Of a DNA stretch of 64,000 bases, positions 4,400-56,942 are shown piece by piece. Under the pieces are notes generated by a model, which was given only the letters and a program-made list of their open reading frames with translations, searched no databases and was not told the DNA's origin. Origin of the DNA: an uncultured bacterium (GTDB taxonomy: Bacteria > RBG-13-61-14 > CAYWKU01); contig CAYWKU010000001.1 of the NCBI GenBank assembly GCA_964459325.1, forward strand, positions 158,040-222,039, read 5' to 3'. Both the position numbers and the translations under genes were made by a program. Numbering within the stretch: the first letter of the stretch is position 1; every line of letters starts with the position of its first letter.

Positions 4400-5619
4400 G
4401 CGAGGAAGAAAACCCCCGGCTCAGGCCGATTCTGTTTATGAAAACCAAGATGGAGGGCAAGGACTATATCCTCGCTCAGGACCGGACGCGCCAGGCTCAG
4501 CCGGTGTTGTTGCCCTCGGCACTGGAGCCGATTTTACGGCTACTGGACGGAAATCATTCACTCCGGGATATCCAGATGGAGCTTACCCGCGCACAGGGAG
4601 GGCAACTGGTTTCTTTCGACGAAGTAAAAAATATCGTGGAGCAGCTGGACAGCCACATGCTCCTGGACAGCGAGCGTTTCAGGGAGACTCAGGAGCTGGA
4701 GCGAAGGTTCTGGGAAGGGTGCAGGTTGAGGAAACCCTTTCATTCGGGACAGGCGTATCCGGATGACCCGGATGAATTGATGAAGATGCTCGACGGTTTT
4801 TACTCCGGTCTCGACTCCGACCCTGTTATCCGGGAGGGTGAGTTTGTAAGGGGCCTGCTGGCTCCACATATTGACATAAGGAGTGGCGGACCGACGTTCG
4901 CGCGAGCTTACCGGGAGCTTTCGGGCGAGCCGCGCGCCGGGCTTTACGTGATACTGGGAACGGCCCACGATTATACTCCCGGGCCGGTGAGCATAAGCCC
5001 CAAGGATTACCTTACCCCTCTTGGCGTGGCAAGGACGGACAATGATTTCATAGACAGGCTGGCTTGTAAGTATAATCCGGACTGGCTTATGGACGATACT
5101 TCCCATAAGACCGAGCACAGCATAGAATTTCAATTGATTTTCCTCCAGCACCTGTTGGGTTCAGGAGACATGCCGCCGGTTGTGCCGGTGCTGGCGGGAG
5201 GATTTTCCGAGTATGTAGAAGGCGGCTCGAGCCCGGCCGATGACGAGAGAGTCGCTCGCTTCATAGAAGCATTCAAGGAAACTGCCGAAGAAGACGGGCG
5301 GAAGATTACTTACATAGTGGGAGGCGACCTGGCTCACATAGGTCCCCGTTACGGCGATTCACACAAGGTGTTGCCCGATGACATCAAAACGTGTTCGGAA
5401 AAAGACATGCAAATGCTCGAAAAAGCGTGCGAAGGGGCCGAGGAGTTTTTCGAGTGCGTCGCCGGGGAAGGTGACCGACGCAATATATGCGGAATGCCGC
5501 CGCTTTATCTTATGCTAAAGCTGATTGACGGGGCAAAAGGCGAAATCATCAGCAATTCCCACTGGTTCGACGAATCCACCGGGAGCGCCGTTACTTTCGC
5601 CGCCATGGTATATAAATAA
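4396..5619 (+). CDS. MEMO1-family protein (AmmeMemoRadiSam system protein B-like) with an N-terminal extension of about 130 aa
   Basis: Motifs GLLAPHIDIRSGG, VILGTAHD and GGDLAHIGPRYGD are typical of Memo/LigB-type dioxygenase-fold proteins; 407 aa versus about 270 for typical Memo. Confidence 0.7.
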   Translation: MSEEENPRLRPILFMKTKMEGKDYILAQDRTRQAQPVLLPSALEPILRLLDGNHSLRDIQMELTRAQGGQLVSFDEVKNIVEQLDSHMLLDSERFRETQELERRFWEGCRLRKPFHSGQAYPDDPDELMKMLDGFYSGLDSDPVIREGEFVRGLLAPHIDIRSGGPTFARAYRELSGEPRAGLYVILGTAHDYTPGPVSISPKDYLTPLGVARTDNDFIDRLACKYNPDWLMDDTSHKTEHSIEFQLIFLQHLLGSGDMPPVVPVLAGGFSEYVEGGSSPADDERVARFIEAFKETAEEDGRKITYIVGGDLAHIGPRYGDSHKVLPDDIKTCSEKDMQMLEKACEGAEEFFECVAGEGDRRNICGMPPLYLMLKLIDGAKGEIISNSHWFDESTGSAVTFAAMVYK

Positions 5620-5633
5620 AACGGGGCGGGAGT

Positions 5634-6434
5634 TCAGTCCCTGATAATTCTTACCAACTCCTGGGTAAATTCGGGTCTCCCGGGGGTAAGTGCCCCGAAT
5701 TCGGCGATAATTCTGACCGGTCGGTGGGGGGCGGACTTTTGGTACCACACGGTAAACTCCGGCAGCACCCGAGTCAGGAGTTGCCCCAGCATTCCCCTTG
5801 GCTTGACCATGTTTTCCTTATCCACCGCCACCTTTACCTTCCAGGTTTCCAGTTCCTTCCACGGTACTTTCAGGCGTTCCTCTTTTTCCACCTTCACCTT
5901 CACCGCCGTGGGCGTTCCTTCCTGGGTGTAAATATGCAGCGAAGTCTTTTTGCCTTTGGCGAAATTGAAACCGGTTAAAGCAAACGGCACGCTGACCAGG
6001 TGAATAGTATCGGGAGGAAGTTGATAGAAGGAATCACCAAACCACGATTCTTCGTGGTAGTATTTCTTCCCCATAGGCGTATATTTGTCCAGTGTGTAGC
6101 CGAGATGTCGCACAGCTTGGGAGTTTCGGCGGTACTTAAATACCCATACCTGCTTGGCGCCGTCCGAACGGATTTCCCGGCAGGTGTGGATTATTCTCTT
6201 TTCGTCATTCCCGTTTTCTTCGATGGAGAATGAGTGTTCGGAATGAATCAGTTTTGAGGGGGTCAGAAAGCTTTTGCCGTGTATTTTTTCCTTTACCCGG
6301 TAGACATAAGTCTCGTCCGGCGACAGGATAGGTGGAGTCAACGTTTTGACGGAAGTTTCGGGATAAGCGGGGGAAAAAGCGAAAGTAAGGGCCATGACGG
6401 CGGTTATGATTATGCATGCCTGTAGTTTGCTCAT
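5634..6434 (-). CDS. secreted hypothetical protein
   Basis: Start placed at MSKLQACIIITAVMALTFA (signal peptide) with ATGA overlap to the upstream SCP2 gene. The longer ORF to 6596 is a basic-residue artefact. Confidence 0.45.
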   Translation of the reverse strand: MSKLQACIIITAVMALTFAFSPAYPETSVKTLTPPILSPDETYVYRVKEKIHGKSFLTPSKLIHSEHSFSIEENGNDEKRIIHTCREIRSDGAKQVWVFKYRRNSQAVRHLGYTLDKYTPMGKKYYHEESWFGDSFYQLPPDTIHLVSVPFALTGFNFAKGKKTSLHIYTQEGTPTAVKVKVEKEERLKVPWKELETWKVKVAVDKENMVKPRGMLGQLLTRVLPEFTVWYQKSAPHRPVRIIAEFGALTPGRPEFTQELVRIIRD

Positions 6435-7051
6435 GAAGCCCGGTGCGTCCAGTCGCCGATAAGTATACTGCCGATTTCCATTGCGAATCTTATGTCGCCC
6501 ACCATGTTGATTTTTCCGGACATGAAAGCGCTCTGAGGGTTGAGCTCCCCTTTTCTCATGGCGGAAGCGTCTTCTTCGTTTATGGAAATGACGCAATCAG
6601 GCTCGGTATGGACTTGTTCCCCGAAAACAGCCGTAATGCCCCAGTCGCCCTTGTCGGGATTTGTCAGCACAAATTTTATGGAGCCGTTTTTGGTTTTCAG
6701 TTTCTCCACGGTTTCCTGGGAGATAAACTCGGTCACCCCCTCGTCGGTATCACCCGGCAGGCGGAATTTAAATCCCCTTTCACCGGTTATAGAACTTCGC
6801 CAGTCTTTTGTGTCCTGCACGATTTTTACGACGCAGTCCGGATTTTCACCCGGTGTACATTTCATCTCATCTCCGTTGAAAGCGATACTCCAGGCGCCAC
6901 CTTCTTCCCCTTCCAGCCTGAAGGTTATACAGGTTTTGATTGGTTTTGTGCCGGCGGGCAGGTTGGCCTTGTTTTCGCGGAAAGTTTCCGGCAATAGCTC
7001 GGTAAAAAAATGCTCCGGCGTTATATCCGGTGGTATCGTTTTGTCATTCAT
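6431..7051 (-). CDS. SCP2 sterol-carrier-like domain protein
   Basis: 206 aa; the C-terminus MSGKINMVGDIRFAMEIG resembles the SCP2 fold. Confidence 0.4.
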   Translation of the reverse strand: MNDKTIPPDITPEHFFTELLPETFRENKANLPAGTKPIKTCITFRLEGEEGGAWSIAFNGDEMKCTPGENPDCVVKIVQDTKDWRSSITGERGFKFRLPGDTDEGVTEFISQETVEKLKTKNGSIKFVLTNPDKGDWGITAVFGEQVHTEPDCVISINEEDASAMRKGELNPQSAFMSGKINMVGDIRFAMEIGSILIGDWTHRAS

Positions 7052-7090
7052 TAGATTTGCTCCGATTAAACGCGGCGCCGAGCGCCCGGT

Positions 7091-8032
7091 TCACGTTCCC
7101 CATTTTTCGTTGAGATATTTTTCGGCGGCCAGGGCCGCCCGGGCTCCTTCTCCCGCCGCTATTACTATCTGGCGGTACTTGGGATTAATCACGTCCCCAG
7201 CGGCGAAAATGCCCGGCACGTTGGTTTGCAAGTCTCCGTCCACTTTGATGAATCCCTTCGAGTCCTTGTCCACGGTGAATCCCAGCCATTCGGATATCGG
7301 CCTGTGTCCAATGTAGATGAAAACGCCTTCGACGGCAAGGTTTCTGGTCTCATGGGTCAGCACATCCTCCAGCTCGATGCCCTCTACCGTCTCGGAACCG
7401 TATATGCTTTTCACAATAGAGTTCCACTGGAAGGAGATTTTTGAATTGGCGAAGGCCTTTTCCTGGTATATTTTCACCGCCCTCAGTTGTTCCCGGCGGT
7501 GGATGATGCAGACTTCCTTCGCGAATTTAGTCAGGTAGAGTGCTTCTTCAATGGCGGAGTTTCCGCCTCCCACGACCGCCACTTTCGCATCCTTGTAGAA
7601 AGGGCCGTCGCAGGTGGCGCAGGCGCTTACCCCGCGCCCCCAGAACTCGTCCTCCCCCGGCACTCCCAGCTTAATCGGAGCCAGGCCGGGCGCCGCTATC
7701 AGCGTCTTACCCCTGATTTCTCCGGCGTCGGTTTCGAGTATTTTCATGCCACCTTCCACCCGAACGCCTTTGACATCGGCGTTTTTTATCTGGCCGCCGA
7801 ACTCGGTCGCCTGGTCCCTGAATCGCGTGGAGAGCTCGAATGCTTCCACTCCGCCGGGAAAGCCCGGGTAATTTTCAACCCGCTCGGTATAAGCCACGTT
7901 GCCGCCCATCATGCCCTTTTCAATAATCAAAGATTTGAGGAGCGACCTCGAGTTGTAAATTGAAGCAGTCACGCCGGCGGGACCGCCGCCCACTATCATT
8001 ACATCCCATATGGTTTCCGTCGCATCGCTCAT
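7091..8032 (-). CDS. trxB: thioredoxin-disulfide reductase
   Basis: FAD site GGGPAGVTASIY, redox CATCDG motif and NADPH site VVGGGNSAIEEALYL. Confidence 0.9.
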   Translation of the reverse strand: MSDATETIWDVMIVGGGPAGVTASIYNSRSLLKSLIIEKGMMGGNVAYTERVENYPGFPGGVEAFELSTRFRDQATEFGGQIKNADVKGVRVEGGMKILETDAGEIRGKTLIAAPGLAPIKLGVPGEDEFWGRGVSACATCDGPFYKDAKVAVVGGGNSAIEEALYLTKFAKEVCIIHRREQLRAVKIYQEKAFANSKISFQWNSIVKSIYGSETVEGIELEDVLTHETRNLAVEGVFIYIGHRPISEWLGFTVDKDSKGFIKVDGDLQTNVPGIFAAGDVINPKYRQIVIAAGEGARAALAAEKYLNEKWGT

Positions 8033-8679: not shown

Positions 8680-11262
8680 TTATAATTGAGAAATTTCTTC
8701 CTCTACCTTCGCTGAAGGGGTAACGCTTACCACCCCGGCGCCACCATTAACAGTTATGATGTCACCGGTCCTTATACAGTTGCAAGCACCCTGTACGCAA
8801 GCTACGCAAGGCAGACCGAAAGCTCTGGAAATGAGACCGATTCCGGATACGAAGCTGCCGGTTTCCGACACCATGGCTCCCGCCACGCCCGCCAGGGGAT
8901 ACATGGCGGAGTTCATCCCGGGAAGGACGGCGACCTGCCCTTGCCCGAGATTCCGAATATCCTCCGGTTTCCGGATTACGCGGGCGGAACCGGTGTATTC
9001 CCCGGAGCATACCCCAATGCCGTGAAGAGTGATTTCAGCCGGGCGAGTCGTTTCCGGCTCCCGAAGCCGTTGGTTTTCGTTAATATCGACCTGGCGCAGG
9101 TTGTTGAATTCTTCCCTTCTCCGGTTTACAAGCTCCTCAGGCGCTGTGCTCAACACCTCCAGGGAAAGCAGCTTTTTAATCTCTTCCAGGCGGAGAAAAA
9201 ATACGTCGCTATCGGAAGCGATTTCGTTCCTCGCCCGGAATCTTCTGCCGGTTTCCAGCAGCATTTTTCGGAGGGTTAAAGCAGCTTCGGCGATGCTTTT
9301 GTCGAGCTTTTGTGTCGAGCTTTCGGAAGCTCGGGCTTTTTCCAGGCAGTGCTTCAGTCCTTTGCTTGCGAAAAACCCCGTACTTTTGGTTGTTTCCCGG
9401 TAATTTTCGGCGGCCCGTGCCGAAGCGGTGTTCATCCTGGTTGTGGGGTCGGTTATTTCTCCGTTTTTCGCCATCATGACAATCATGGCCGCCGGCTCTT
9501 GCGATTGCTCCTTCCACCCGCCACGAGCGCATTCAAGTATTCCCGAAGATAAGTAGCCGTACTTATTGAGAAATTCTACGAGCCGCCTGTTGAAAAGCTC
9601 GCCTCCTTCCACTCGTAGCGCAAACAACTGGATTTCCTGCCAACCGGTAAGTTCTTCCATTTTTTCCGGAATTCGTCCTATTGATTCCGCCAGCCTTCCC
9701 AGCTTCCACGTATCCCTTGTCAGGGCTTTTCCCAGAGGCGAAGGGGGCAGGGCGGCATGAATTTCAGCAGCGCGGTCGGGGATTTTCGATTCCAGGAGGT
9801 TTCTGAGGGTGGAATGAAGGAGAATCAGGCAAAGCCGGAGTTCGGTGCGGGCGGTTATGAGGGGTTCGATTACGTCTTCTATAACCTCCTCCGTCAGTAA
9901 ATACAGGGCCGCGTCGCTTTTGCCTCTCAAGTCCGTGCGCTCGAGCCGCTTTTTCCGTTGAAGAAGCGCGGGGAGCGTTTTTTCCAACCTTTTGTTGATT
10001 TTACGCGCTGCTTTTCCCGCCCGGAATATCGTCATGAGGTTGCCGATTGTCCCTTTCGGCTTTGCAGGTGCAAGGACATCGTCTTTGAGAGTGGTCTCGG
10101 GCGCGATTTCCGGGTAGATGTTCATCAACTGCGCCAGGTGGTCGGTAAGCTCGGCGGAATTAACGTGCAGCCTGCCGTATAGGTCGGTGAAAAGTTTCAT
10201 GTCGTCGGCAATACGGATACCGGCGTTTTTCATTGCCGAGTGAGCGGCTTTTTCCACAAGGGGCATCATTATGCTTTTAGTGCATGGCGTCATGGGTTCA
10301 TCGGTCATAAATTCCGCCGCCCAATCCAGGCGGGACCATTTCCGCCCGGCATCGTGCTCGCGTGTTTCCGTCATGGGTTTGGCGCCCACTATGTGGAAGT
10401 TGCCTCCCACGGCGCACCAGTTCACGGCCTGAGGCGCTCCCATTTGCTCTTCCACCCGGCCCCCGAACTTTGCTAATGCGCACGCCAGCTCCTCGGTCAG
10501 GCCGGAAGGCCGGGGGCCGGTCAATCGCCTTTCTTCGAGCTGCCAATCGGCACGCGCCACGTGGAATATCTCCGGCTGAGGCCTTTTTCCCGGCGAATTA
10601 TCCGTAACGCCGCCGGTGGCTTCCAGGACAAGAACGTCGGGATTTCCGGTGGCCGGGTCGGAGGTGTATAACGTGCCGGAAACATCGGCGGGAACCATCC
10701 TTTGCACGATAACAGCCATTCGCGGAGGGCGGTGCAATGCACCCACCCGGGCGAGATACCTCAATGCTTTCGGATTGAACGCCTCCGACCAGATTTTCCT
10801 TATCCCATCGAAGAGGGCATCGTAGCCCTGTATCCCGGGCCGGCATTCGTAAAGGCCGGAGGGGGGAGGCGGTTCGTTTTGATGAAATACCGGGTCGGTG
10901 CGAACTATCACCTCCACGTACGGGTTCCCCTCCCCAAGGTTGGAATAGGCCTGCCGGATATCCTGCTCGATGGGTTCGTTTATTTGAACGGCATTTATGA
11001 GGTCGCTAATTTCGGAGGCAGATTTCGACAGAGAATCTTCATCCAGCGATTCGATTTTCGGGAGTAATTCTTTAACCTTTTCCCAAAATTCGGAGCTTTC
11101 CACGCACCTTTCCCAGGCTGTTGATGTAACCGCGAACCCCTCGGGCACGGGGAATCCGGCTTTTATCAGTGCTCCCAGGGAAGCCGTCTTGCGGCCTGAA
11201 ACGCGGGTGTAGTCGCCGGTCGAAATGTTTTCCAGCGGGACGGTTATGGGCGGCGTTACCAT
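8680..11262 (-). CDS. PEP-utilising-enzyme family protein (rifampin phosphotransferase / PEP synthase-like architecture); swivel-domain His apparently replaced
   Basis: N-terminal PPDK-type ATP-grasp (SLGALIKAGFPVPEGFAVT). 860 aa. The C-terminal mobile domain aligns with GGRTSHAAIIARELGIP as TGSFVSGIGLISRAFGLP, which places His at a Gly. Confidence 0.6.
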   Translation of the reverse strand: MVTPPITVPLENISTGDYTRVSGRKTASLGALIKAGFPVPEGFAVTSTAWERCVESSEFWEKVKELLPKIESLDEDSLSKSASEISDLINAVQINEPIEQDIRQAYSNLGEGNPYVEVIVRTDPVFHQNEPPPPSGLYECRPGIQGYDALFDGIRKIWSEAFNPKALRYLARVGALHRPPRMAVIVQRMVPADVSGTLYTSDPATGNPDVLVLEATGGVTDNSPGKRPQPEIFHVARADWQLEERRLTGPRPSGLTEELACALAKFGGRVEEQMGAPQAVNWCAVGGNFHIVGAKPMTETREHDAGRKWSRLDWAAEFMTDEPMTPCTKSIMMPLVEKAAHSAMKNAGIRIADDMKLFTDLYGRLHVNSAELTDHLAQLMNIYPEIAPETTLKDDVLAPAKPKGTIGNLMTIFRAGKAARKINKRLEKTLPALLQRKKRLERTDLRGKSDAALYLLTEEVIEDVIEPLITARTELRLCLILLHSTLRNLLESKIPDRAAEIHAALPPSPLGKALTRDTWKLGRLAESIGRIPEKMEELTGWQEIQLFALRVEGGELFNRRLVEFLNKYGYLSSGILECARGGWKEQSQEPAAMIVMMAKNGEITDPTTRMNTASARAAENYRETTKSTGFFASKGLKHCLEKARASESSTQKLDKSIAEAALTLRKMLLETGRRFRARNEIASDSDVFFLRLEEIKKLLSLEVLSTAPEELVNRRREEFNNLRQVDINENQRLREPETTRPAEITLHGIGVCSGEYTGSARVIRKPEDIRNLGQGQVAVLPGMNSAMYPLAGVAGAMVSETGSFVSGIGLISRAFGLPCVACVQGACNCIRTGDIITVNGGAGVVSVTPSAKVEEEISQL

Positions 11263-12920: not shown

Positions 12921-13024
12921 ATGAAATTTTACCGAATTCTTTACATTCAGTATTTATATTGAAGAATCGGTAAGTATTGTGTATGATATTGAGGAGTCCT
13001 CGTGTGAGTTCCAGTATAGAAAAA

Positions 13025-14164
13025 ATGAATAAAGAATTTGATGTTATGGAGATGTATTCGTCCGAATTCAAGGAAAAATGCGAGGCCGTCGCAAGCGCAC
13101 CCGGCAGGGTAAATCTTATCGGGGAACATACCGACTACAACAAGGGTTTTGTCCTCCCCATGGCGGTGGAGCGGAGGGTATGGGCGGCGGGCAAGCCGGC
13201 TTCGGGTGATGTTGTCGAGGTGGCAAGCGCCGATATGCCGGGGCATTTCATGGCCGAAAAAGGGCTCAAACGCACCCGGACGTGGGCCGATTATCCCCTC
13301 GGGGTGATATGGGCGCTCAGGGAGGAAGGCTGGAAAATCCCGGGCGTGAAAATTTACTACCGGGGAAACGTGCCCCTCGGCGGGGGTCTGTCAAGCTCCG
13401 CGGCCATTGAGGTCGCTACCGCTCAACTGCTGAAGGGGCTTTTCAACCTGCCCATATCGGCCCGGCAAATGGCTCTGACCTGCCAGTTGGCCGAAAACCA
13501 GTTCGTGGGCATGAAATGCGGCGCCATGGACCAGATGGCCTCGGCTCTCGGAGAAAAGGACAGGGCACTGCATATCGATTGCAGGGACTTGAAATTCCAA
13601 ACGGTGCCGCTGAAAATCGACGACCACAAGGTGGTGATAATCAACAGCGGCGTTAAAAGAGAGCTTGCCGCAAGCGAGTACAACAAGCGCCGAAACGAAT
13701 GCGAAGAGGCCGCGAAAAAACTCGGGGTCAAAAGCCTGCGGCGTGTTTCATCAAAAGATATGGATAAAATCGAGGCCCTGCCGGAGCCTCTGAGCCGGCG
13801 CGCACGGCACGTGGTGACGGAAAATGAAAGGGTCGGGCGGGCCGTGGATTGCGTTTCCGGTGGCGACCTCGAGGAGTTCGGCGAACTGATGAACGCGAGC
13901 CACTCAAGCTTGAGGGACGATTATGAAGTCAGCGTCCCGGAGCTGGATTTCCTGGTGGATGAGTGCAATAAAGTCAAAGGGGTGCTGGGAGCGAGGCTTA
14001 CCGGAGCGGGCTTCGGAGGATGTATAGTAGTGCTGGCTCACAAGGACTCGATACCGACGATAGAAAAGAAAATCCTTGGCGGCTACAGGAAAAAGTTCCC
14101 GAGCGAGCCTTCCCTCATGACCACCAACCCGGCCGACGGGGCCAGGGTCGAAGAGTTGATGTGA
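13025..14164 (+). CDS. galK: galactokinase
   Basis: GHMP kinase motifs APGRVNLIGEHTDYNKGFVLPMA and PLGGGLSSSAA. Start chosen at MNKEF; the upstream in-frame codons are not conserved. Confidence 0.85.
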   Translation: MNKEFDVMEMYSSEFKEKCEAVASAPGRVNLIGEHTDYNKGFVLPMAVERRVWAAGKPASGDVVEVASADMPGHFMAEKGLKRTRTWADYPLGVIWALREEGWKIPGVKIYYRGNVPLGGGLSSSAAIEVATAQLLKGLFNLPISARQMALTCQLAENQFVGMKCGAMDQMASALGEKDRALHIDCRDLKFQTVPLKIDDHKVVIINSGVKRELAASEYNKRRNECEEAAKKLGVKSLRRVSSKDMDKIEALPEPLSRRARHVVTENERVGRAVDCVSGGDLEEFGELMNASHSSLRDDYEVSVPELDFLVDECNKVKGVLGARLTGAGFGGCIVVLAHKDSIPTIEKKILGGYRKKFPSEPSLMTTNPADGARVEELM

Positions 14165-14182
14165 AGGGGAGCGTTGTCCCCG

Positions 14183-14200
14183 CCTACTGCTGCCTACCCC
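14183..14200. repeat. left direct repeat (CCTACTGCTGCCTACCCC) flanking the cassette island
   Basis: Matches 16089-16106 (CCTTACTGCTGTCTACCC), which forms the 3' end of the CDS 16091-16669. Confidence 0.6.
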
Positions 14201-14201
14201 C

Positions 14202-14317
14202 GGGTGGCCCGGACGTTATACGTCCGGGTTGTCCGGCAGGACAACAAGAAATAATGATGTACTAAGTCCGAGGGTATCAAATTTCCGACCCTACACGGGT
14301 GTTTACCCGTGCCATCC
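14202..14317. repeat. Repeat A copy 1 (GGGTGGC - hairpin ... hairpin - GCCATCC)
   Basis: Perfect palindrome CCCGGACGT-TAT-ACGTCCGGG at 14208-14228; terminal hairpin CACGGGTGTTTACCCGTG. Confidence 0.7.
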
Positions 14318-14445
14318 TAATGGTATCCAAACATCACAGAGCTGACATTCTGTTTAACGGATTTGCTCTTGACAATCATTCTTGTGCTGTGATAAGTTCA
14401 CAAAAATTTAAATAAAGAACAGATAGCCGCCAATAGGAGGGGGAA

Positions 14446-14676
14446 ATGAAAGAAATAAAAGTTATATTGAGCTTTCTGCTAATCTTGGCTATTTGTGGTT
14501 GCGCTTCCAAGGCTTATCAATCCGCCAGAAACAAAGACACGGTGGAAGCCTATAAAGAATTCCTCGAAAAATATCCCGACTCAAAGTTTACCTCAGAAGC
14601 AAAAGCCAGACGTGAAGAACTATACTTTCAAAAACCCTATGGGAAAGGGAACTATTGTAATTGCCAAAAATTTTAG
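14446..14676 (+). CDS. small lipoprotein with TPR-like motif (possibly the N-terminal part of a frameshifted gene)
   Basis: Signal peptide plus lipobox LAICGC. AYKEFLEKYPDSKFTSEAKA resembles a YbgF/CpoB-type TPR. Ends in an A5T4 homopolymer tract. Confidence 0.4.
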   Translation: MKEIKVILSFLLILAICGCASKAYQSARNKDTVEAYKEFLEKYPDSKFTSEAKARREELYFQKPYGKGNYCNCQKF

Positions 14677-15088
14677 CTTAAACAAAGTGAATTTTGGTTT
14701 TCCGTATCATGGATATCAAAGAGCTGAACTTTGGTTAAGGAATCACCCAAGATGGGGAACAGATGTTATGCTGCTCGTAAAAAGAGGTCAATATGATTGT
14801 GACATAATAAATGGATGTTCGTTGGCGGTTCGGTTTGATGAGGAAAATATATGGTGGTGTGAAGCACAGCAGCCGAAATCGGGAAGTAGTAATGTTTTAT
14901 TTTTGTCTCGGCCTGTTGCCTTCCTTTCAAGCCTACCGGCCCATAAAAAACTGCGTATTGAAGCCGCTTTCTATCAAGAAGGAAATCGTACTTTCGAATT
15001 TAATATACATGGTTTTGACCTATTCCGGTTGTGCTTGGGGGAAAAGAACGCTCAGCTCGTAAGGGAGCTTATTATAGACAAAAAGTAG
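14495..15088 (+). CDS. hypothetical protein (a +1 frame relative to 14446-14676; possibly the downstream part of the same gene)
   Basis: 197-aa ORF with AT-rich codon usage and no family recognised. Overlaps the lipoprotein ORF. Confidence 0.35.
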   Translation: MVALPRLINPPETKTRWKPIKNSSKNIPTQSLPQKQKPDVKNYTFKNPMGKGTIVIAKNFSLNKVNFGFPYHGYQRAELWLRNHPRWGTDVMLLVKRGQYDCDIINGCSLAVRFDEENIWWCEAQQPKSGSSNVLFLSRPVAFLSSLPAHKKLRIEAAFYQEGNRTFEFNIHGFDLFRLCLGEKNAQLVRELIIDKK

Positions 15089-15097
15089 GCGAGGGCG

Positions 15098-15250
15098 GGG
15101 TGGCCCGGACGTTATACGTCCGGGTCCGAAGGACAAGAAACGTTGCAGACAACCGGGGGTTTCTCAACGACCTTCCTCTAAGCTTGAAACTACGGTGGAG
15201 ATGTTTCTTGTTGCAGGCGCAACACAGACGCAGTGGCGTCTGTGCCACCC
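15098..15250. repeat. Repeat A copy 2 (153 bp)
   Basis: GGGTGGC + CCCGGACGTTATACGTCCGGG + TCCGAAGG ... TTTCTTGTTGCAGGCGCAAC + hairpin CAGACGCAGTGGCGTCTG + GCCACCC. Confidence 0.7.
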
Positions 15251-15342
15251 GCCCAAGCGGAGATTTGTTGCAGTTTGCAGCATAACAACAACAGTTAATC
15301 TAAAATATTTGAGTGTTTCTGCAAAACGGTAAGGAGGAATTT

Positions 15343-15891
15343 ATGAGTATTCCATTGGATATAGTTAGATTTTTATTTGATATTATAAAAAATCATTACC
15401 ATAAACCCAAATTGGAGTTGGAAGGGGATGAAGCAGCCACTGGCTCCAAAGTTTATGCGCACGTTGTCAAGGTAAGAAACAAAGGCAGAAGTATTGCGAA
15501 AAATTGTGTGGGGGAACTTACGATAGATATATATAAAAATGATATTGCACATATCCCTCAAAATGTTTTAAATGCCAATGGCTATTGTATTCATCAGAAC
15601 AATTTTAGAGCGATAAAAGATGAGGGATTATGCTGGTCTTTCGGCAATAATCCTGACAAAATAATGATAAATCCGCGTACCTATAAGAAACTTGATTTTT
15701 ATCAAGTATATATTGGTAGCCGAGAAATTGATATCCCGAGCGAAAAGGGATTTAAAAAAAAGAGGGTAAAACTGAAGCCCAAGGACTACATGGGTACAAT
15801 AACGGTAAGCGCTGAAAATGCAGAGCCAGTTACAAGAAGCTTCAAAATGATAGTTAAGAAAAACGATGTAGACTATGAATGGATAGATTGA
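15343..15891 (+). CDS. hypothetical protein (cassette ORF, low GC)
   Basis: Strong RBS AAGGAGG 6 nt upstream of the ATG at 15343. Lys/Asn/Ile-rich composition unlike neighbouring genes. Confidence 0.5.
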   Translation: MSIPLDIVRFLFDIIKNHYHKPKLELEGDEAATGSKVYAHVVKVRNKGRSIAKNCVGELTIDIYKNDIAHIPQNVLNANGYCIHQNNFRAIKDEGLCWSFGNNPDKIMINPRTYKKLDFYQVYIGSREIDIPSEKGFKKKRVKLKPKDYMGTITVSAENAEPVTRSFKMIVKKNDVDYEWID

Positions 15892-15907
15892 GCAGATTGA
15901 TAATGGT

Positions 15908-16049
15908 GGGTGGCACGGACAGTATTGTCCGTGTTCCGAAGGGGCAAGAGGATTAATCGTATTGTGTGAGGGGAAGGCGGGGACTCGTCAGCGCCGATAA
16001 TTAGGGAAAAAGATTTCTTGTTGCTTGCGCAACCCGGACGTATAACGTC
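15908..16049. repeat. Repeat A copy 3 (142 bp) with a diverged left hairpin and an inverted right-end palindrome
   Basis: GGGTGGC + CACGGACA-GTAT-TGTCCGTG + TTCCGAAGG ... TTTCTTGTTGCTTGCGCAAC + CCCGGACGTATAACGTCCGGG + GCCACCC. The right end is the exact reverse complement of the copy 1 left end (27 bp). Confidence 0.75.
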
Positions 16050-16090
16050 CGGGCCACCCTGGGCGTTTTATTGTGGTATTTGTACCCCCC

Positions 16091-16669
16091 TTACTGCTGT
16101 CTACCCTCTATCCCGGTTATAAGTACCGACGAGGCTATTGCGAGCCGGCGGTCGAAGAGGTTCTGCATGTCCTGTGAGAAGTCGAGGTTGAGTTTGAGGA
16201 CGAAGGGGTTGAAGTTCTGCTTGAATACGGCCACCGGCCGGGAGTTAATCGTGACCTGGAACTTTTGAGGTATCAGGTTGCTCAAAAACCGCCTGAGAAG
16301 TGCGAGGAACAGGCTGTCTTCGACGATTTTCCCTACTTCCCGGTCATTGTTGTCCAGTATGAGCCATTCGTCCCGGAAGATGGCTTTCAGGCCGCTTCTT
16401 CTCAATGCGCCGACTTTTTCTCCGGTGGTGTTGTCCACCACGTCGTAAGTGGCGGAGATGTCAAGCATTTTGCGCGCCTTTATGGAGAGTATCCGCTCCT
16501 GCTTGCTCTTGTCTCCGAACACCCCGATGTCTTCCTTAAGCTTGAAAGCCTTCAACTCCGAGAAAAACACCAGGTTGCCCTGCGGGTCGTAAATGTGGTA
16601 CGAGCCGCCGAAGATTTTGAATATGGTCCTTCTGACCATGTAGTGGGAATGCCGGAACCTTTCATCCAT
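16091..16669 (-). CDS. hypothetical protein (possible LURP1/Tubby-like fold, DUF567-like)
   Basis: 192 aa; weak resemblance (FKIFGGSYHIYDPQGNLVF). Its last 6 codons lie inside the right direct repeat. Confidence 0.35.
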   Translation of the reverse strand: MDERFRHSHYMVRRTIFKIFGGSYHIYDPQGNLVFFSELKAFKLKEDIGVFGDKSKQERILSIKARKMLDISATYDVVDNTTGEKVGALRRSGLKAIFRDEWLILDNNDREVGKIVEDSLFLALLRRFLSNLIPQKFQVTINSRPVAVFKQNFNPFVLKLNLDFSQDMQNLFDRRLAIASSVLITGIEGRQQ

Positions 16670-17001
16670 TTTCAGCTCCTTTCAATAACCCAATAGTAAT
16701 CGCCCGGTTTTGGTATATGGCCCTTATATCTCAAGGCGGTACTAAAAATACCGCATTCTGGAATTGACATTTTCGGCAAGACAGTAAGCGCACCGGATTG
16801 AAATTAAACACGTGGCGGTACGGATATTTTTTATTTTATGTAACTCTTCCAGGGTTTTATTAAAACCAAACCACCCGGCATTATGATAATTATGGGAACA
16901 CATGAAAATAATTGTTTGTTACTCTACTGCTTATAATTGCCAGAAATCAGTAGACTTTCCGGCATATTGTAAAATTCCATAAGCGTCATCTTTAACCATA
17001 T

Positions 17002-17778
17002 TTATCGCCCATCGACGTAATTCCGGCTCCCATTCAATATTTTTTTTGTCGGGAGAGGAGTGCTTAGATGATGCTTAATCTTATTTTTTATATTTTTTGG
17101 GATAATTGGTTTAATATAATTAATAATTTTTATTCTTTTTAACTTGCGCAAGGAACTAGTAGATTGCCTCCTGCCATCCGATGCATTCTTACGCTTAAAA
17201 ATGTCGGTAAAGTTAAATTCATAATCAACATTTAAAAAACGACAAATATCCGATAATACTGCATGAGGGGCTGCTATAAAATCTTCAAAGAATAGGATTT
17301 TAATTTGTTCATCGGTAAAGTATTTCCTATATTCTGAAATTATATTATAATAAAGACATGATTGAATTAATGATTTGTATTCCGTTACAGCTTTTGAAAA
17401 AACTTTAGGCATTTGTGAATATCCTACAGTTGTGTTTCTAAAATTATGTAAGAAACTGGACTCAATCTTATCAAGTGGATGCCTGACTATGTAAATTAAT
17501 TTCGCATTTGGAAGGTCATTCTTCAATCTTTGTGCAGCCTTTGAATAATACTGTCCAGTGTAACATGTAGATGCGTCGCCTATACATATTTCATTAGAAT
17601 GGTGTTTAAAAAATGATTCGTACCAACTCCATCCCTTGCTGTAATTATAGTCCCTTGAGAAAAAATTTGGCTCTTTTGGCTTGGACATACATACATCGGG
17701 ATGTTGTTGTAATAGACTCCAAATGCTGGTAGTCCCGGCTTTTGCGGCACCTATTATCAAAAAATTTGGCTTTATCAT
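17002..17778 (-). CDS. sulfotransferase family protein
   Basis: PAPS-binding P-loop IIGAAKAGTTS followed by a sulfotransferase-like body. Low GC, AT-rich codons. Start placed at MIKPNF. Confidence 0.7.
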   Translation of the reverse strand: MIKPNFLIIGAAKAGTTSIWSLLQQHPDVCMSKPKEPNFFSRDYNYSKGWSWYESFFKHHSNEICIGDASTCYTGQYYSKAAQRLKNDLPNAKLIYIVRHPLDKIESSFLHNFRNTTVGYSQMPKVFSKAVTEYKSLIQSCLYYNIISEYRKYFTDEQIKILFFEDFIAAPHAVLSDICRFLNVDYEFNFTDIFKRKNASDGRRQSTSSLRKLKRIKIINYIKPIIPKNIKNKIKHHLSTPLPTKKILNGSRNYVDGR

Positions 17779-17895
17779 GGATAGAATTATAACACACATA
17801 GCATGAATTCAGCAAAAGCGAGTCTGGTACTGAAGTCTTTCTTTGAGGGGCTATACCTTATTACCCGTTGGTTGGTGGAAAATAATCGGTGTAGG

Positions 17896-18762
17896 TTATG
17901 GAGAAGACTTGAACTTTTCATCCAGCTCGTACTTTTCCTTAACGCTAATCATCCGGGTGAAATCGTCGAACGTCATCATCTTGTGCTGTATGTCGAAAGT
18001 GTACCCGTGCTCCGGCAGGTGCTCGTAAGTATCGGATAATGCTTTCGGCGCCGCAAACAGGCCTGAGAGGACGTAACCGACGCTGATGAATCCGAATTGG
18101 CGGACTTCTTCGAGTGGCAAGAGAGGCGTTTTGCCGCCCTCTATCATGTTCACCACCAGCGGCCCGGGCACTTCGGCGGCAATCCTTTTCATCACGTCCA
18201 CGCTCTTGGGAGCTTCGATGAAAATCAGGTTCGCTCCCGCTTCCTTGTAGGCGTTGCCTCAGCGGATGGCTTCGTCCAGCCCAAGCGGCTCGCGGCCGTC
18301 TGTGCGGGCGGTGATGGCGACCTGAGCGTCCCCCTTTGCCTCGACGGCGGCCCGTATTTTGGCGATGTGCTCTTCGGCGGGAACCACCGATTTGCCGCGC
18401 ATGTGGCCGCACCTTTTGGGCCAGGTCTGGTCTTCGAGTAGCACGCCCCTCACGCCCATCCGTATAGCTTCTTTGACCATGCGCATAACGTTGAGTGCGC
18501 CGCCGTAGCCGGTGTCGCCGTCCATTACCACCGGGATGTTTACCGCGTTCACCACCCTCCAGGCGGTATCGAGTATTTGCGTCTGGGACATTATGCCGAA
18601 CTCCCGTTCTCCAAGCAGGGAGGCGGCCACTCCGAAGCCGGTCAGCACTACCGACCTGAACCCCGCCCGCTCGGCCAGTTTTGCGCTCAGGGCATCGTAA
18701 ACCCCCGCCACCAGGATAACCTGGTTGTCGCGCACCAAGGGGTGCATTTTCGGCTCAGTCAT
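17896..18762 (-). pseudogene. isocitrate lyase/PEP mutase family (2-methylisocitrate lyase PrpB-like) gene interrupted by an in-frame TGA
   Basis: N-terminal part 18259-18762 and C-terminal part 17896-18201 are in the same frame. A TGA at 18259-18261 sits where PrpB has AIERAQAYVEAGAD (here AIR*GNAYKEAGAN). Confidence 0.65.
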
Positions 18763-30484: not shown

Positions 30485-30558
30485 GGGTGGTTAGCTCAGC
30501 CAGGTAGAGCATCGGACTTTTAATCCGAGGGCCGAGGGTTCGAATCCCTCACCACCCA
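30485..30558 (+). tRNA. tRNA-Lys: tRNA-Lys (anticodon UUU)
   Basis: Cloverleaf with acceptor stem GGGTGGT/ACCACCC, D-arm TAGCTCAGCCAGGTAGAGCA, anticodon loop CTTTTAA and T-arm GGTTCGAATCC. Confidence 0.85.
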
Positions 30559-50392: not shown

Positions 50393-51955
50393 TTATTTGT
50401 GATTCCGTTGGTTGTTTAATTTGAGTCTACTCTTGAGAGTTCCTGTAGTTTTATGCTCTTGATAGGGCATAATCTTTAGTTGTTTGTTGGAGACTTTTAT
50501 TACTCCGCTTTTCCAATTTTTGAGACTCAACAAGAAAGTTTCGAACGCTGCGCCGATTTTGAAAAAGTGGGTGCTTGACCTGAATATGGCCCGGAAAAAT
50601 TGCTTGTTTTTGGGGTACATTCTGATAATGTTATAAACTCTCCAGGGCCTGAAATAAAATCGCCGGTAAGCGCTCCTGATTACTTTTTTTAAATCTACGA
50701 ATCCGTTGGCGGCCGTTTGGTAGACCGGTTTCCGGTAATGCAAGCTGGGCAGATTTTCTTCGTTAAATTCGTAGTCGGGATAGTTTTGTTTGACGATGTC
50801 GAAGAGCTCCGTTCTCGGGTAAGCCAATACCGAAAAGAACAATGCTCTGAGCGCTTTGCTCTTTATGGCGAATTTTATGGTTTCTTCCATCTCCTCGGGC
50901 GTTTCGGAAGGGAATCCGAGCATGAAAAAAGCAGAGGGAATGATGCCCGCGTTGTATGCTTTTTCCATGTTTTCCCTTACTTTTTCCACATCCAGGTTCT
51001 TTTTCATCATTTTCTGCAGCCTCGGAGTGACCGTTTCCACGGCGAAGACCATACAATAGGTGCCGGCTTGCGCCAGGAGCCGGATAAGCTCGTCGTCCAG
51101 CCTGTCTCCTCTCACCCCGTTGGGAAAGGCCAGCTTTATATCTATGCCGGAGCGAATGATTTCCCTGCAAATCTCTTTGGCCGTGTCCAGGTCGTAGTTG
51201 AAAATATCGTCGAAAAAATGAATTTCTTTTACTCCATAATCCCTGTTTAAAGCCCGGATTTCGTCCACCACGTTTTCAACGCTCCTGGCCCTGAAGCGCT
51301 TTCCGAAAATTTTATGGCAGTAAACGCACTTATAAGGACAGCCCCTGCTGGTCATTATAGGCATGTAAGGAGACTTGGCCAGGAAGGAGTTCATACTTAC
51401 CGTTTTGTCGTATGCCTTGATGTCTATGAGGTCCCATGCGGGATGGGGAATGCTGTCCATATCCGTGATAAAAGGACGGGGAGGATTTATAACATGCTCG
51501 CCATTGCTGCTGTAGGCGAGCCCCCGGATGTCGGTCCAGTCCTTTCCGGATTGAAGGCGGTCTAAAAGTTCGACGAAAGTTTCCTCGCCTTCTCCCACCA
51601 CGACAGCGTCCGGCTCGGGCTTGTTCAGCACATGGTCGGTGAAAAAAGTGGCGTGAGGGCCGCCTACTACTATGAAGGCCGACGGCAAAATACTCTTGGT
51701 CAGGGACATTATATTATACAGTCCGGGCGCTTCGACGGTCAGGACGCTGAAACCTACAACGTCGGGGTTATAGCTTTGGAGTAGCCGCTTATATTGGGCT
51801 ACCGAATGCATGCTGGCGCGCATATGAATGAGCTTCACCTCGGGGGGCGGGCTGACCCATTGACGGGCCGCGGAGGCCAGGTACATGGCTCCGAGAGGAG
51901 GGGTTACGCCAGCAGCCTCAACATACCACAAAGGGCGAACAAGTAATAATTTCAT
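50393..51955 (-). CDS. B12-binding domain radical SAM protein
   Basis: N-terminal B12-binding Rossmann domain plus radical SAM SRGCPYKCVYC. Start set at MKLLLVRP; the ORF extends to 52138, but the upstream codons look non-coding. Confidence 0.75.
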   Translation of the reverse strand: MKLLLVRPLWYVEAAGVTPPLGAMYLASAARQWVSPPPEVKLIHMRASMHSVAQYKRLLQSYNPDVVGFSVLTVEAPGLYNIMSLTKSILPSAFIVVGGPHATFFTDHVLNKPEPDAVVVGEGEETFVELLDRLQSGKDWTDIRGLAYSSNGEHVINPPRPFITDMDSIPHPAWDLIDIKAYDKTVSMNSFLAKSPYMPIMTSRGCPYKCVYCHKIFGKRFRARSVENVVDEIRALNRDYGVKEIHFFDDIFNYDLDTAKEICREIIRSGIDIKLAFPNGVRGDRLDDELIRLLAQAGTYCMVFAVETVTPRLQKMMKKNLDVEKVRENMEKAYNAGIIPSAFFMLGFPSETPEEMEETIKFAIKSKALRALFFSVLAYPRTELFDIVKQNYPDYEFNEENLPSLHYRKPVYQTAANGFVDLKKVIRSAYRRFYFRPWRVYNIIRMYPKNKQFFRAIFRSSTHFFKIGAAFETFLLSLKNWKSGVIKVSNKQLKIMPYQEHKTTGTLKSRLKLNNQRNHK

Positions 51956-56411: not shown

Positions 56412-56942
56412 ATGGAAGAGAACTCCCGCAGAGACAGGTTGCCCCTGCGGTTGAGAATCAAATATGTGACGGTGGACCAGTTTTTGATTGATTACACCGA
56501 GAACATACGAAAAGGTGGGAGCTTTGTCCGCACCGGCAAGCCTTTGCCTCCCGGCACACGGCTGCACCTGGAGCTGGAAGTGGCGGGGGTGCCGGTATTT
56601 ATAAAGTTGAGAGGGCGGGTGGCATGGATTAACCACCCGAGGGGAGAATGGCACCGCCCCAACCTTCCGCCCGGCATGGGAATTCTTTTCTTTTTTGCCG
56701 ACGAATCGTCGAAAAACCTGCTGGAAAACCTGGTTACCCGTCTTGAAAAAGCGCCAGAATCGCGGGAAAAGAGAATAAGCCCCGAGTATCTGGCGGAGTT
56801 GATAAGGAAGCTCCGGCCGGATATCCGCCAACTGGTAAAAGAAAAAGGCGACGAAAGCGACTTGCTTGGACACCAGATTCGTCATATACTTAATGACGAG
56901 GAGAGTGATGACTCTCCAGAGGTGAAGGATGAGCAAGGGTAA
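56412..56942 (+). CDS. PilZ domain protein
   Basis: RxxxR (RRDRLPLRLR) and D/N-x-S-x-x-G (TENIRKGGSF) c-di-GMP-binding motifs. Confidence 0.7.
   Translation: MEENSRRDRLPLRLRIKYVTVDQFLIDYTENIRKGGSFVRTGKPLPPGTRLHLELEVAGVPVFIKLRGRVAWINHPRGEWHRPNLPPGMGILFFFADESSKNLLENLVTRLEKAPESREKRISPEYLAELIRKLRPDIRQLVKEKGDESDLLGHQIRHILNDEESDDSPEVKDEQG

Follow-up and report, generated by a model that had tools for sequence, protein, structure and literature searches.

The window analysed here, a 64-kb (64,000-nt) stretch of DNA from an uncultured bacterium, contains an island of ~1.9 kb (14202-16059; 14.2-16.06 kb) between a galactokinase gene and a LOR/YxjI-like gene. Two open reading frames (ORFs) of low GC content (0.40 and 0.36, versus 0.54 across the window) lie within the island, and the three non-coding gaps around them are filled by three structured elements, each a doublet of one module in inverted orientation. 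The island starts with GGGTGGCCCGGACGTTATACGTCCGGG at 14202-14228 and ends with its exact reverse complement at 16033-16059, 10 nt beyond the end point (16049) given in an earlier note on this DNA, which had already recognized the 27-bp terminal inverted repeats. With their flanks, the inverted repeats extend to 34 nt (97%; 14198-14231 and 16030-16063). They correspond to the REP modules on the outer sides of copies 1 and 3 and by themselves do not prove that the island is a single mobile unit. The sequence GGGTGGCNNGGAC is matched eight times at one mismatch or fewer, where 1.56 matches are expected; the matches at 56617 and 62645 are both inside coding sequence and are probably due to chance. 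A TAATGGT heptamer is found at the inner junctions of copies 1 and 3, and we estimate the probability of a match at those exact junctions at ~6e-5 per comparison.

Table 1 Features of the island and its surroundings (positions in the 64-kb window; REPIN assignments as argued in the text).
Feature	Position	Strand	Description
Galactokinase gene (galK)	12977-14164	+	Convergent with LOR-like gene; context only
Direct repeat, left copy	14174-14199		23/27 matches to 16080-16106
Copy 1	14202-14317		116 nt; probable REPIN, half degenerate
TAATGGT 7-mer	14318-14324		Immediately after copy 1
ORF1	14446-15088	+	Lipoprotein-like, frameshifted, GC 0.40
Copy 2	15098-15250		153 nt; probable REPIN, complete, variable centre
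ORF2	15343-15891	+	Orphan gene, 182 aa, GC 0.36
TAATGGT 7-mer, second occurrence	15901-15907		Immediately before copy 3
Copy 3	15908-16059		152 nt; probable REPIN, complete
Direct repeat, right copy	16080-16106		Native 3' end of LOR-like gene, stop codon 16091-16093, plus 11 nt downstream
LOR/YxjI-like gene	16091-16669	-	Context only; its 3' end is the target of the duplication

The two low-GC ORFs are probably foreign in origin. Their low GC content had been noted before, but the first of them, taken then for a single ORF, consists of two overlapping frames, 14446-14676 with a lipoprotein signal and 14495-15088 with the body. Its family matches are weak (YfiO/TPR, 0.003; phrog_1848, 7e-4). 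Homologues of ORF2 fall into only three protein clusters (36-42% identity), located on AT-rich contigs that do not carry the element. ORF2 has no match in Pfam, PADLOC or PHROG, the comparison of both ORFs with PADLOC and PHROGs gave nothing useful, and the AlphaFold model of ORF2 is of too low confidence for use (mean pLDDT 42). In a close relative (88% protein identity), the gap between galK and the LOR-like gene measures 120 bp and the island is absent. This is the empty site that had been suggested as a check, found in one relative; compared with the closest relative, the 1.9-kb block as a whole is inserted sequence. Exact look-ups of the window proteins returned only short Logan contigs (SRR7048218, SRR7048220), which break at the repeats. 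Integrase, resolvase and transposase Pfam families are absent from the 54 large ORFs of the window, bearing out the previous statement that it contains no integrase, and no recombinase is present in the annotated neighbourhood of the relative.

The island is flanked by an imperfect direct repeat. Local alignment of 14174-14199 (TTGT-CCCCGCCTACTGCTGCCTACCC) with 16080-16106 (TTGTACCCCCCTTACTGCTGTCTACCC) gives 23 matches in 27 columns, a score reached by none of 2000 shuffles. Within this alignment, 14185-14199 and 16092-16106 are identical at 14 of 15 positions, where 0.13 such matches (two mismatches or fewer) are expected in the 64-kb window. The left copy duplicates the last codons of the LOR-like gene, its stop codon and ~11 nt downstream. 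The duplication of the neighbouring gene's 3' end proposed in the earlier note is thus real and longer than the 18 nt quoted there, which in fact encode GRQQ-stop rather than IEGRQQ-stop. On the minus strand, the left copy spells GRQQ-stop, as does the right, and LOR-like orthologues terminate in IEGRQQ or IEGRQR. The right copy is contiguous with the LOR-like gene and its flank aligns with the galK-LOR spacer of the relative, while the left copy lies at most 2 nt from the island.

This arrangement may indicate that a site-specific recombinase integrated the block whole at the 3' end of the LOR-like gene and that a replacement gene end was carried in with it. The integrase would since have been lost or would act in trans, and the structured elements would be passengers or later colonists. 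Such an event is suggested by the strength of the direct repeat, the GRQQ-stop shared by both copies, their placement next to gene and island, the empty site and the low-GC ORFs. However, the 54 window ORFs include no recombinase, the block is merely 1.9 kb long, we found no second copy of it or of its ORFs with matching ends, and the 120-nt spacer of the relative is too diverged for the crossover to be placed. We regard site-specific integration of the block as possible, if rather unlikely. It is compatible with the explanation of the structured elements developed below, because it concerns the island and not the 150-nt elements.

The module common to the three elements consists of an invariant GGGTGGC head, directly followed by hairpin 1 (7-12 bp), one G, hairpin 2 (4-6 bp, with a G-N-A triloop) and the segment AAGARR. 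The head contains GTGG, a GT[A/G]G-type tetranucleotide. Within a doublet the two heads are complementary to each other, as are the two AAGARR segments, and the four hairpins fold locally. Hairpin 2 is often exactly GCGAAGC, which forms a very stable DNA mini-hairpin. The presence of three copies agrees with the earlier note, except that copy 3 is 152 and not 142 nt long. The left module of copy 1 (14202-14251) is intact; in its right module the head reads GGATGGC and the hairpin ACGGGT/ACCCGT, and hairpin 2 and the AAGARR segment are missing. The modules of copy 2 are located at 15098-15140 (+) and 15204-15250 (-), those of copy 3 at 15908-15951 (+) and 16014-16059 (-). In copies 1 and 3 the inner module is divergent. 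All three elements (3/3) are extragenic.

A metagenome scan for the two 13-nt ends, using a pattern that did not demand hairpin 2 or AAGARR, returned at least 124 distinct elements, 64 of which carry both modules in the format seen in the window (hairpin 2 plus AAGARR). The doublets are 126-156 nt long with a highly variable centre. A model (R1) made from 31 metagenome modules, with zero window sequence, has five hits in the 64 kb, all of them among the six window modules and scoring 33-49.5 bits: the left module of copy 1 (33 bits, E = 1e-5), both modules of copy 2 (35.7 and 44.9 bits) and both modules of copy 3 (49.5 and 41.4 bits). The right module of copy 1 is missed. The copies are confined to 1.9 kb, with none detected by R1 in the other 62 kb of the window or in the syntenic 16.6 kb of the relative, and a large native population would be expected to be spread more evenly.

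The hairpins are conserved in structure rather than sequence. Hairpin cells are paired in 93% of cases, compared with 80% in shuffles and at most 54% with partners slid, and 62 are changed on both sides, compared with 20.7 in shuffles, a value reached by none of 500. In 52 of the 64 doublets the AAGARR hexamer is identical in both modules (shuffled pairings: mean 35, maximum 43). Each of the three window copies has a more stable fold than its shuffles (z = -3.8 to -5.3; copy 2, -5.3). The covariation of the hairpins claimed in the earlier note holds.

Stable predicted folds and covarying hairpins could also arise from selection at the RNA level, if the elements were structured-RNA genes or cis-elements such as an sRNA, a terminator or an mRNA stabilizer. 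The end of copy 3 overlaps with a terminator-like site, and effects of REPs on termination and mRNA stability have been reported from other bacteria (PMC3733652, PMC6006769). However, Rfam gives no match in 14100-16150 even at E = 10, and a tRNA at 30485 alone reaches the gathering score in the window. The elements are associated with a DNA transposase, as described below, and the frequent GCGAAGC of hairpin 2 is a structure of DNA. Furthermore, in a symmetric pair of inverted modules the two halves differ as RNA and are equivalent as DNA, which argues against the RNA reading. We consider it very improbable, although the elements may have a secondary RNA-level effect.

At five unrelated loci (L069, L042, L097, L163 and L164), a small gene is bracketed by inverted modules. 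In L069, modules at 136 and 734 enclose an ORF of 163 aa that matches Y1_Tnp in Pfam (3e-10). This ORF, the one scanned, scores 103 bits against the NCBIfam model of the REP-associated tyrosine transposase (RAYT; NF047646, cut-off 80), and 35 bits against the IS200 model NF033573, below the cut-off of 55. Those relatives of the transposase that are named belong to Planctomycetes. RAYT units bounded by modules of the family measure ~600-650 nt, and a 147-nt element adjoining the L069 transposase gene retains ~30 nt from the 3' end of that gene. L163 and L164 are NCBI genomes, in which further doublets occupy intergenic gaps. The 64-kb window contains no RAYT gene detectable by tblastn or HMM; weak RAYT HMM matches at 51251-51781 are spurious and lie antisense to a radical-SAM gene.

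Because the model recovers the window modules and the modules bracket a RAYT-type gene elsewhere, we interpret the elements as REP doublets (REPINs). The three elements are very probably REPINs around two foreign-looking genes, mobilized by a RAYT that is encoded elsewhere. A REPIN is a known kind of element and not a new cassette system. The short elements are internal-deletion forms of a module-bracketed HUH/Y1 transposase unit. By analogy with RAYT and IS200/IS605 enzymes, the modules would fold as hairpins in single-stranded DNA, and a RAYT acting in trans would bind head and hairpin, cut and rejoin the strand and so move the doublet. The terminal inverted repeats of the island are the outer modules of the first and last doublets. 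An earlier suggestion of a MITE-like non-autonomous element is near the truth for each element of ~150 nt, because REPINs are non-autonomous. We know of no REPIN or Y1 transposition that yields a 27-nt flanking duplication, and the origin of the island therefore lies outside the REPIN explanation. The duplication suggests a separate integration, whether site-specific or through microhomology, rather than REPIN transposition.

In other genomes, the elements are mostly single and occupy ordinary intergenic gaps between housekeeping genes. At the two loci with gene calls they are extragenic at all positions, and on several contigs two or three copies are interspersed with ordinary genes, without anomalous GC content. 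Of the listed elements, about one in ten lies within 50 nt of a contig end. Plasmid sequences yielded no real BLAST match to a window element or to a typical member of the family. The internal motif common to copies 2 and 3, TTTCTTGTTGCNNGCGCAAC, gave chance coding matches only, in two MFS transporter genes among genome contigs and, among viral contigs, in phage genes (28 matches).

There is no consistent target-site duplication: 77 of the 120 listed elements have none at all, and the sole excess is a 2-nt GC that can equally be read as a palindromic extension of the repeat. Tandem duplications aside, flanking direct repeats in the family are few and non-adjacent. Long terminal inverted repeats and small, multi-copy, non-coding elements are also features of ordinary MITEs that descend from DDE-type insertion sequences, and such MITEs would be expected to show a target-site duplication. 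Its inconsistency here, together with full-length relatives that encode a Y1/RAYT enzyme and not a DDE transposase, makes this origin extremely improbable. The sequences likewise spoke against Xer/dif-type modules and inverted repeats of the Tn3 type, both of which were dropped.

The alternation of ORF and structured site, on one strand throughout, had suggested an array of integron-like cassettes whose attC family would be non-canonical. Like attC sites, the elements are imperfect inverted repeats with single-strand folding, a 7-bp outer stem that closes the fold and a variable centre, and they follow short ORFs in one orientation. In contrast to attC, they end in GGGTGGC and GCCACCC and lack R/L boxes (RYYYAAC/GTTRRRY) and the conserved AAC/GTT, an absence of R boxes that had been recognized from the start; the nearest GTT heptamers (GTTATAC, GTTGCAG) are unfitting and not terminal. 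Each element consists of one module twice over, in inverted orientation and with hairpins in each half, the sites elsewhere are dispersed singly or bracket a RAYT gene, and the associated enzyme is a Y1 transposase instead of IntI. The 54 window ORFs include neither IntI nor another recombinase (Phage_integrase included). Cassette arrays without an integrase exist, so the missing integrase alone is not decisive. In ~0.8 Mb of loci, we found no array of many ORFs between these sites beside a recombinase. A cassette array or new recombination-site family is, in our judgement, hardly credible, and the elements come close to the generic REP-like element that the earlier note had named as the case against its proposal. 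That interpretation is thus partly supported: the direct repeat, the covariation and the empty site stand, and the integron-like cassette does not.

The REPINs of P. fluorescens SBW25 (Bertels and Rainey 2011, PMC3116915; also PMC3337134, PMC5581495) likewise consist of two inverted palindromic REP units and a spacer that together can form one hairpin. They are non-coding and multi-copy, occur in tandem and mixed clusters, and have a single cognate Y1 transposase gene flanked by the REP units. In contrast to SBW25, the family described here has a GGGTGGC head with a GTGG core, two hairpins plus AAGARR per unit, doublets of 126-156 nt with a highly variable centre and a transposase related to those of Planctomycetes, not Gammaproteobacteria; the 64-kb window shows three copies only and no RAYT. 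The REP/BIME system of E. coli shares units in alternating orientation, a hairpin with a conserved guide tetranucleotide at its 5' foot, and an HUH/Y1 enzyme, TnpA-REP, that recognizes both on single-stranded DNA (PMC3479197; described in PMC6006769). The present family differs from it in sequence and in having two hairpins per module. IS200/IS605 elements and their miniature derivatives (PATEs) share the enzyme superfamily, subterminal hairpins, a single-strand mechanism and the lack of target duplication, whereas in our family the enzyme scores as RAYT and not IS200 and the ends are inverted copies of one module instead of two like-oriented hairpins.

According to the text of a survey by Di Nocera et al. 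(2013; PMC3733652), GTAG-tagged REP families include 'TIRYT/TIRtron' units with double-palindromic inverted repeats, REP families occur in the PVC superphylum, and a GTGG variant of the tag is found in Opitutus terrae. The same text describes dimers joined head to head, with spacers of 20-100 bp that in some cases bear small stem-loops at their ends, and genes for tyrosine transposases between inverted repeats, which in part are double palindromes. The shared repeat motif given there is GGGGWSAS, not GGGTGGC. We did not find the GGGTGGC two-hairpin family in the REP literature compared, which for this survey comprises its text.

A further question is whether REP modules moved the island itself. 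The span 14202-16059 could be a REP-bounded cargo transposon, in which a RAYT used the left module of copy 1 and the right module of copy 3 as ends and moved the span whole, much as RAYT genes themselves are placed between two modules. These outer modules form the 34-nt inverted pair, which reaches 4 nt past the head, while the inner modules are divergent; RAYT units bounded by the same modules exist, the site is empty in the relative and the 64 kb contain no other REP module. However, the outer pair is not special, because identical 'master' modules are expected among the REPINs of one genome. Y1 transposition does not leave a 27-nt duplication, a second copy of the block is not known, and at other loci doublets alternate with ordinary genes with no sign of joint mobility. 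We consider such a transposon improbable. In a related and similarly doubtful scenario, REP modules and a RAYT captured cargo, and the 1.9-kb block is a horizontally acquired, REP-bounded cassette that brought its own REPINs.

The main value of our analysis is correct filing, in that an apparent new cassette system turns out to be a cluster of REPINs. Environmental bacteria carry this family very widely (at least 124 distinct elements), and its two-hairpin module, invariant head and clear full-length RAYT units make it a good substrate set for RAYT DNA recognition outside Proteobacteria. The copies seen in the source genome, within the 64-kb window, sit exactly around recently acquired low-GC genes; if they are the sole copies in that genome, this would be a rare instance in which foreign DNA brought REPINs along. 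If the capture of cargo were true, the TAATGGT junctions and the 27-nt flanking repeat would be traces of the chemistry of capture and insertion, and the view of the REPIN-RAYT system as solely vertical and cargo-free would be contradicted.

The island between galK and the LOR-like gene is bounded by an exact inverted repeat, with GGGTGGCCCGGACGTTATACGTCCGGG at 14202-14228 as the earlier note described. The exact reverse complement spans 16033-16059, so that the island ends at 16059 rather than at 16049 as previously given; copy 3 measures 152 nt, not 142 nt. Including flanks, the outer inverted repeat extends over 34 nt at 97% identity. Each of the three copies is structured: the predicted fold is a multi-hairpin junction with GGGUGGC/GCCACCC as its closing stem (z = -3.8 to -5.3). 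The elements have a GC content of 0.53-0.57, and the segments bearing the ORFs are indeed of lower GC (0.40 and 0.36 vs 0.54 for the window). Together with the start of the hairpin, the head motif matches eight times in the window (1.56 expected); two distant matches that we inspected, at 56617 and 62645, lie in coding sequence and are chance-like.

Features of the island, its surroundings and related loci
Feature	Position	Strand	Remarks
galK	12977-14164	+	
Direct repeat, left copy	14174-14199		
Copy 1	14202-14317		
TAATGGT, first	14318-14324		directly 3' of copy 1
ORF1, first frame	14446-14676		lipoprotein signal
ORF1, second frame	14495-15088		long body
Copy 2	15098-15250		
ORF2	15343-15891		
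TAATGGT, second	15901-15907		directly 5' of copy 3
Copy 3	15908-16059		
Direct repeat, right copy	16080-16106		
LOR/YxjI-like gene	16091-16669	-	
Second low-GC insert	16693-17907		GC about 0.30-0.39
Sulfotransferase gene	17002-17799	-	in second insert, between LOR-like and PEP-mutase/ICL genes
PEP-mutase/isocitrate-lyase-family gene	17908-18762	-	
L163 (NCBI genome GCA_942493135.1), module	9914-9963	+	
L163, gene between modules	10001-10513		
L163, module	10515-10564	-	
L136, RAYT homologue	5715-6360		in-frame TAG; identical sequence in L058
L010, doublet	6963-7289		
L075, doublet	4731-5170		
Sub-family, GC 0.37-0.45 loci			e.g. L050, L070, L084, L133, L141
Sub-family, GCAGACAT type			e.g. L042, L058, L066
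Sub-family, GGACAAG type			e.g. L051, L056, L125

Read inward from either end, each element presents the same module: a GGGTGGC head, hairpin 1, a single G, hairpin 2 and an AAGARR segment. The hairpins at the two ends are usually of different sequence, and pairing across the element is possible for the head and AAGARR segment only. Copy 1 combines a good left module with a degenerate right end (GGATGGC head, different hairpin, no hairpin 2). One common 'master' hairpin occurs in three of the six window modules, the pattern of members of one REPIN population. Family-wide, hairpin 2 has a G-N-A triloop with a C:G closing pair and is often exactly GCGAAGC (alignment A2, columns 28-40). As DNA, GCGAAGC forms a mini-hairpin of unusual stability, in keeping with a role as single-stranded DNA.

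The covariation that had been noticed between hairpins was tested on 31 ungapped 46-nt modules, all from metagenomes, and was borne out: standard pairs occupy 93% of cells, against 80% in shuffles and at most 54% with slid partners. Both sides have changed in 62 cells vs 20.7 in shuffles, and none of 500 shuffles reached the observed value. A covariance model built from those 31 sequences and zero window sequences recovers five of the six modules in the window, with scores of 33-49.5 bits (E = 1e-5 to 1e-9). The 64 kb contain no further match, and syntenic loci in the closest relative have none. Both modules of a doublet have the same AAGARR hexamer in 52 of 64 cases; shuffled pairings agree in 35 on average and 43 at most.

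Rfam contains no family matching the elements, even at E = 10, and a query with the internal motif common to copies 2 and 3 returned chance coding matches and nothing else. In viral contigs, a left-end query retrieved true relatives that share the architecture of the window elements and whose hairpin 2 differs by compensatory changes. A metagenome pattern of two 13-nt ends with 100-130 nt between them matched at least 120 stretches, and the scan comprises at least 124 distinct elements in loci with GC from 0.37 to 0.71. Although the pattern imposed neither hairpin 2 nor AAGARR, at least 64 of the elements carry both modules in the window format; the remaining matches have the ends alone in common and represent other sub-families. 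The AAGAAA variant of the inner segment seen in window modules appears in no metagenome element among the matches listed. The core conserved over this broad GC range is the head with the first stem bases. Sub-families that share nothing beyond the 13-nt ends (GGGTGGC N Y R GAC) have quite different interiors, and one of them is an AT-rich type of 126 nt. Among the matches listed, several single contigs carry two or three copies, and in about a tenth of loci a contig end lies no more than 50 nt from an element, an expected effect of repeats that break assemblies. Short-read Logan contigs from the source sample (L003, L004, L162; SRR7048218, SRR7048220) likewise terminate within REP hairpins, at window positions ~15113, 16032 and 16043; the assembly graph was therefore broken there by the repeats. 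At L010, the doublet centre holds a second, unrelated palindrome of ~90 nt (GGGTGCCACGGGTTCCGTACTCGGACCCCGTG...), and at L075 one doublet is present in three partly overlapping copies, which suggests insertion into existing copies or recombination between them.

The module also brackets a transposase gene. Modules at 136 and 734 of metagenome locus L069 enclose a 163-aa ORF that is Y1_Tnp by Pfam (3e-10) and scores 103 bits against NCBIfam NF047646 (REP-associated tyrosine transposase, RAYT; cut-off 80), while remaining under the IS200 model's own cut-off. Homologues of this gene are bracketed by modules in two further loci (L042, L097) and in two independently fetched NCBI genomes (L163, L164), which have additional doublets in called intergenic gaps. 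Among homologues of the transposase, the named ones belong to Planctomycetes (Schlesneria, Isosphaeraceae, Thermoguttaceae, Rubinisphaera). A 147-nt element adjoining the L069 gene retains the gene's final ~30 nt, so the short elements are internal-deletion forms of the gene-carrying unit. The RAYT homologue at L136 lies between inverted units with a GGCTGGC head and a GCAGAGC hairpin, which form a different REP class, and GGGTGGC-type doublets are found on the same contig.

It is by such an arrangement, a transposase gene bracketed by modules, that REP sequences, REPINs (their doublets) and RAYTs are defined (PMC3116915, PMC3337134, PMC5581495, PMC6006769). The GTGG within the GGGTGGC head fits the GT[A/G]G guide tetranucleotide that REPs are reported to have (PMC6006769) and equals the GTGG variant given for Opitutus terrae (PMC3733652). 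As far as the text of these papers without figures shows, the head-plus-two-hairpin module has no description there. The elements are thus REPINs of a RAYT-associated REP family. We found no consistent target-site duplication of the elements, which fits a Y1 enzyme and speaks against a DDE-type MITE.

A cassette array resembling an integron, the other reading proposed, fails on every testable feature and is not supported. The element ends are not the R boxes of attC, and other contigs have the elements interspersed with ordinary genes, without compositional anomaly. The window was correctly described as free of an integrase: its 54 large ORFs include no member of an integrase, resolvase or transposase family. 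The 'ORF, site, ORF, site' layout is the appearance of REPINs in successive intergenic gaps, and the outer modules, belonging to copies 1 and 3, make up the 27-bp terminal inverted repeats of the island. The first of the intervening ORFs, previously taken as a single frame at 14446-15088, consists of two overlapping frames, probably switching near an A-run at ~14630; either the gene is frameshifted or the assembly is in error here.

The island block itself is an insertion. An empty site exists in a relative with an 88% identical LOR-like protein and the same gene order, where galK and the LOR gene are convergent, 120 bp apart, and no REP module is present in the locus. The flanking direct repeat is real (27 columns, 23 matches; score reached by none of 2000 shuffles). 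On the right, the repeat copy is the LOR gene's native end: orthologues finish in IEGRQQ or IEGRQR, and this flank can be aligned to the spacer of the relative. The left copy, at most 2 nt from copy 1, reads GRQQ-stop too. Y1 transposition does not produce such a repeat, which suggests integration at the LOR gene 3' end via a recombinase or microhomology; no recombinase is present in the window. The two TAATGGT 7-mers sit just outside module heads, one at the right module in copy 1 and the other at the left module in copy 3; copies 1 and 3 could formerly have been adjacent, with the ORF-bearing segment inserted between them. If joined, the two sites give a head-to-head module pair with a 7-nt spacer.

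Beyond the LOR-like gene lies a second low-GC insert, flanked by no REP modules; the close relative lacks it, and 139 bp separate the LOR-like and PEP-mutase/ICL genes there. The PEP-mutase/isocitrate-lyase-family gene can be aligned in a single frame to the relative's intact 288-aa protein (285 aa, 86% identity) and has one in-frame TGA near 18256-18258, making it a pseudogene, a sequencing error or a case of recoding.

Every REP module of the 64 kb is located in the island block. The island-level puzzle, which combines foreign ORFs, an empty site, a 27-nt repeat and REPINs found only here, is modestly interesting.
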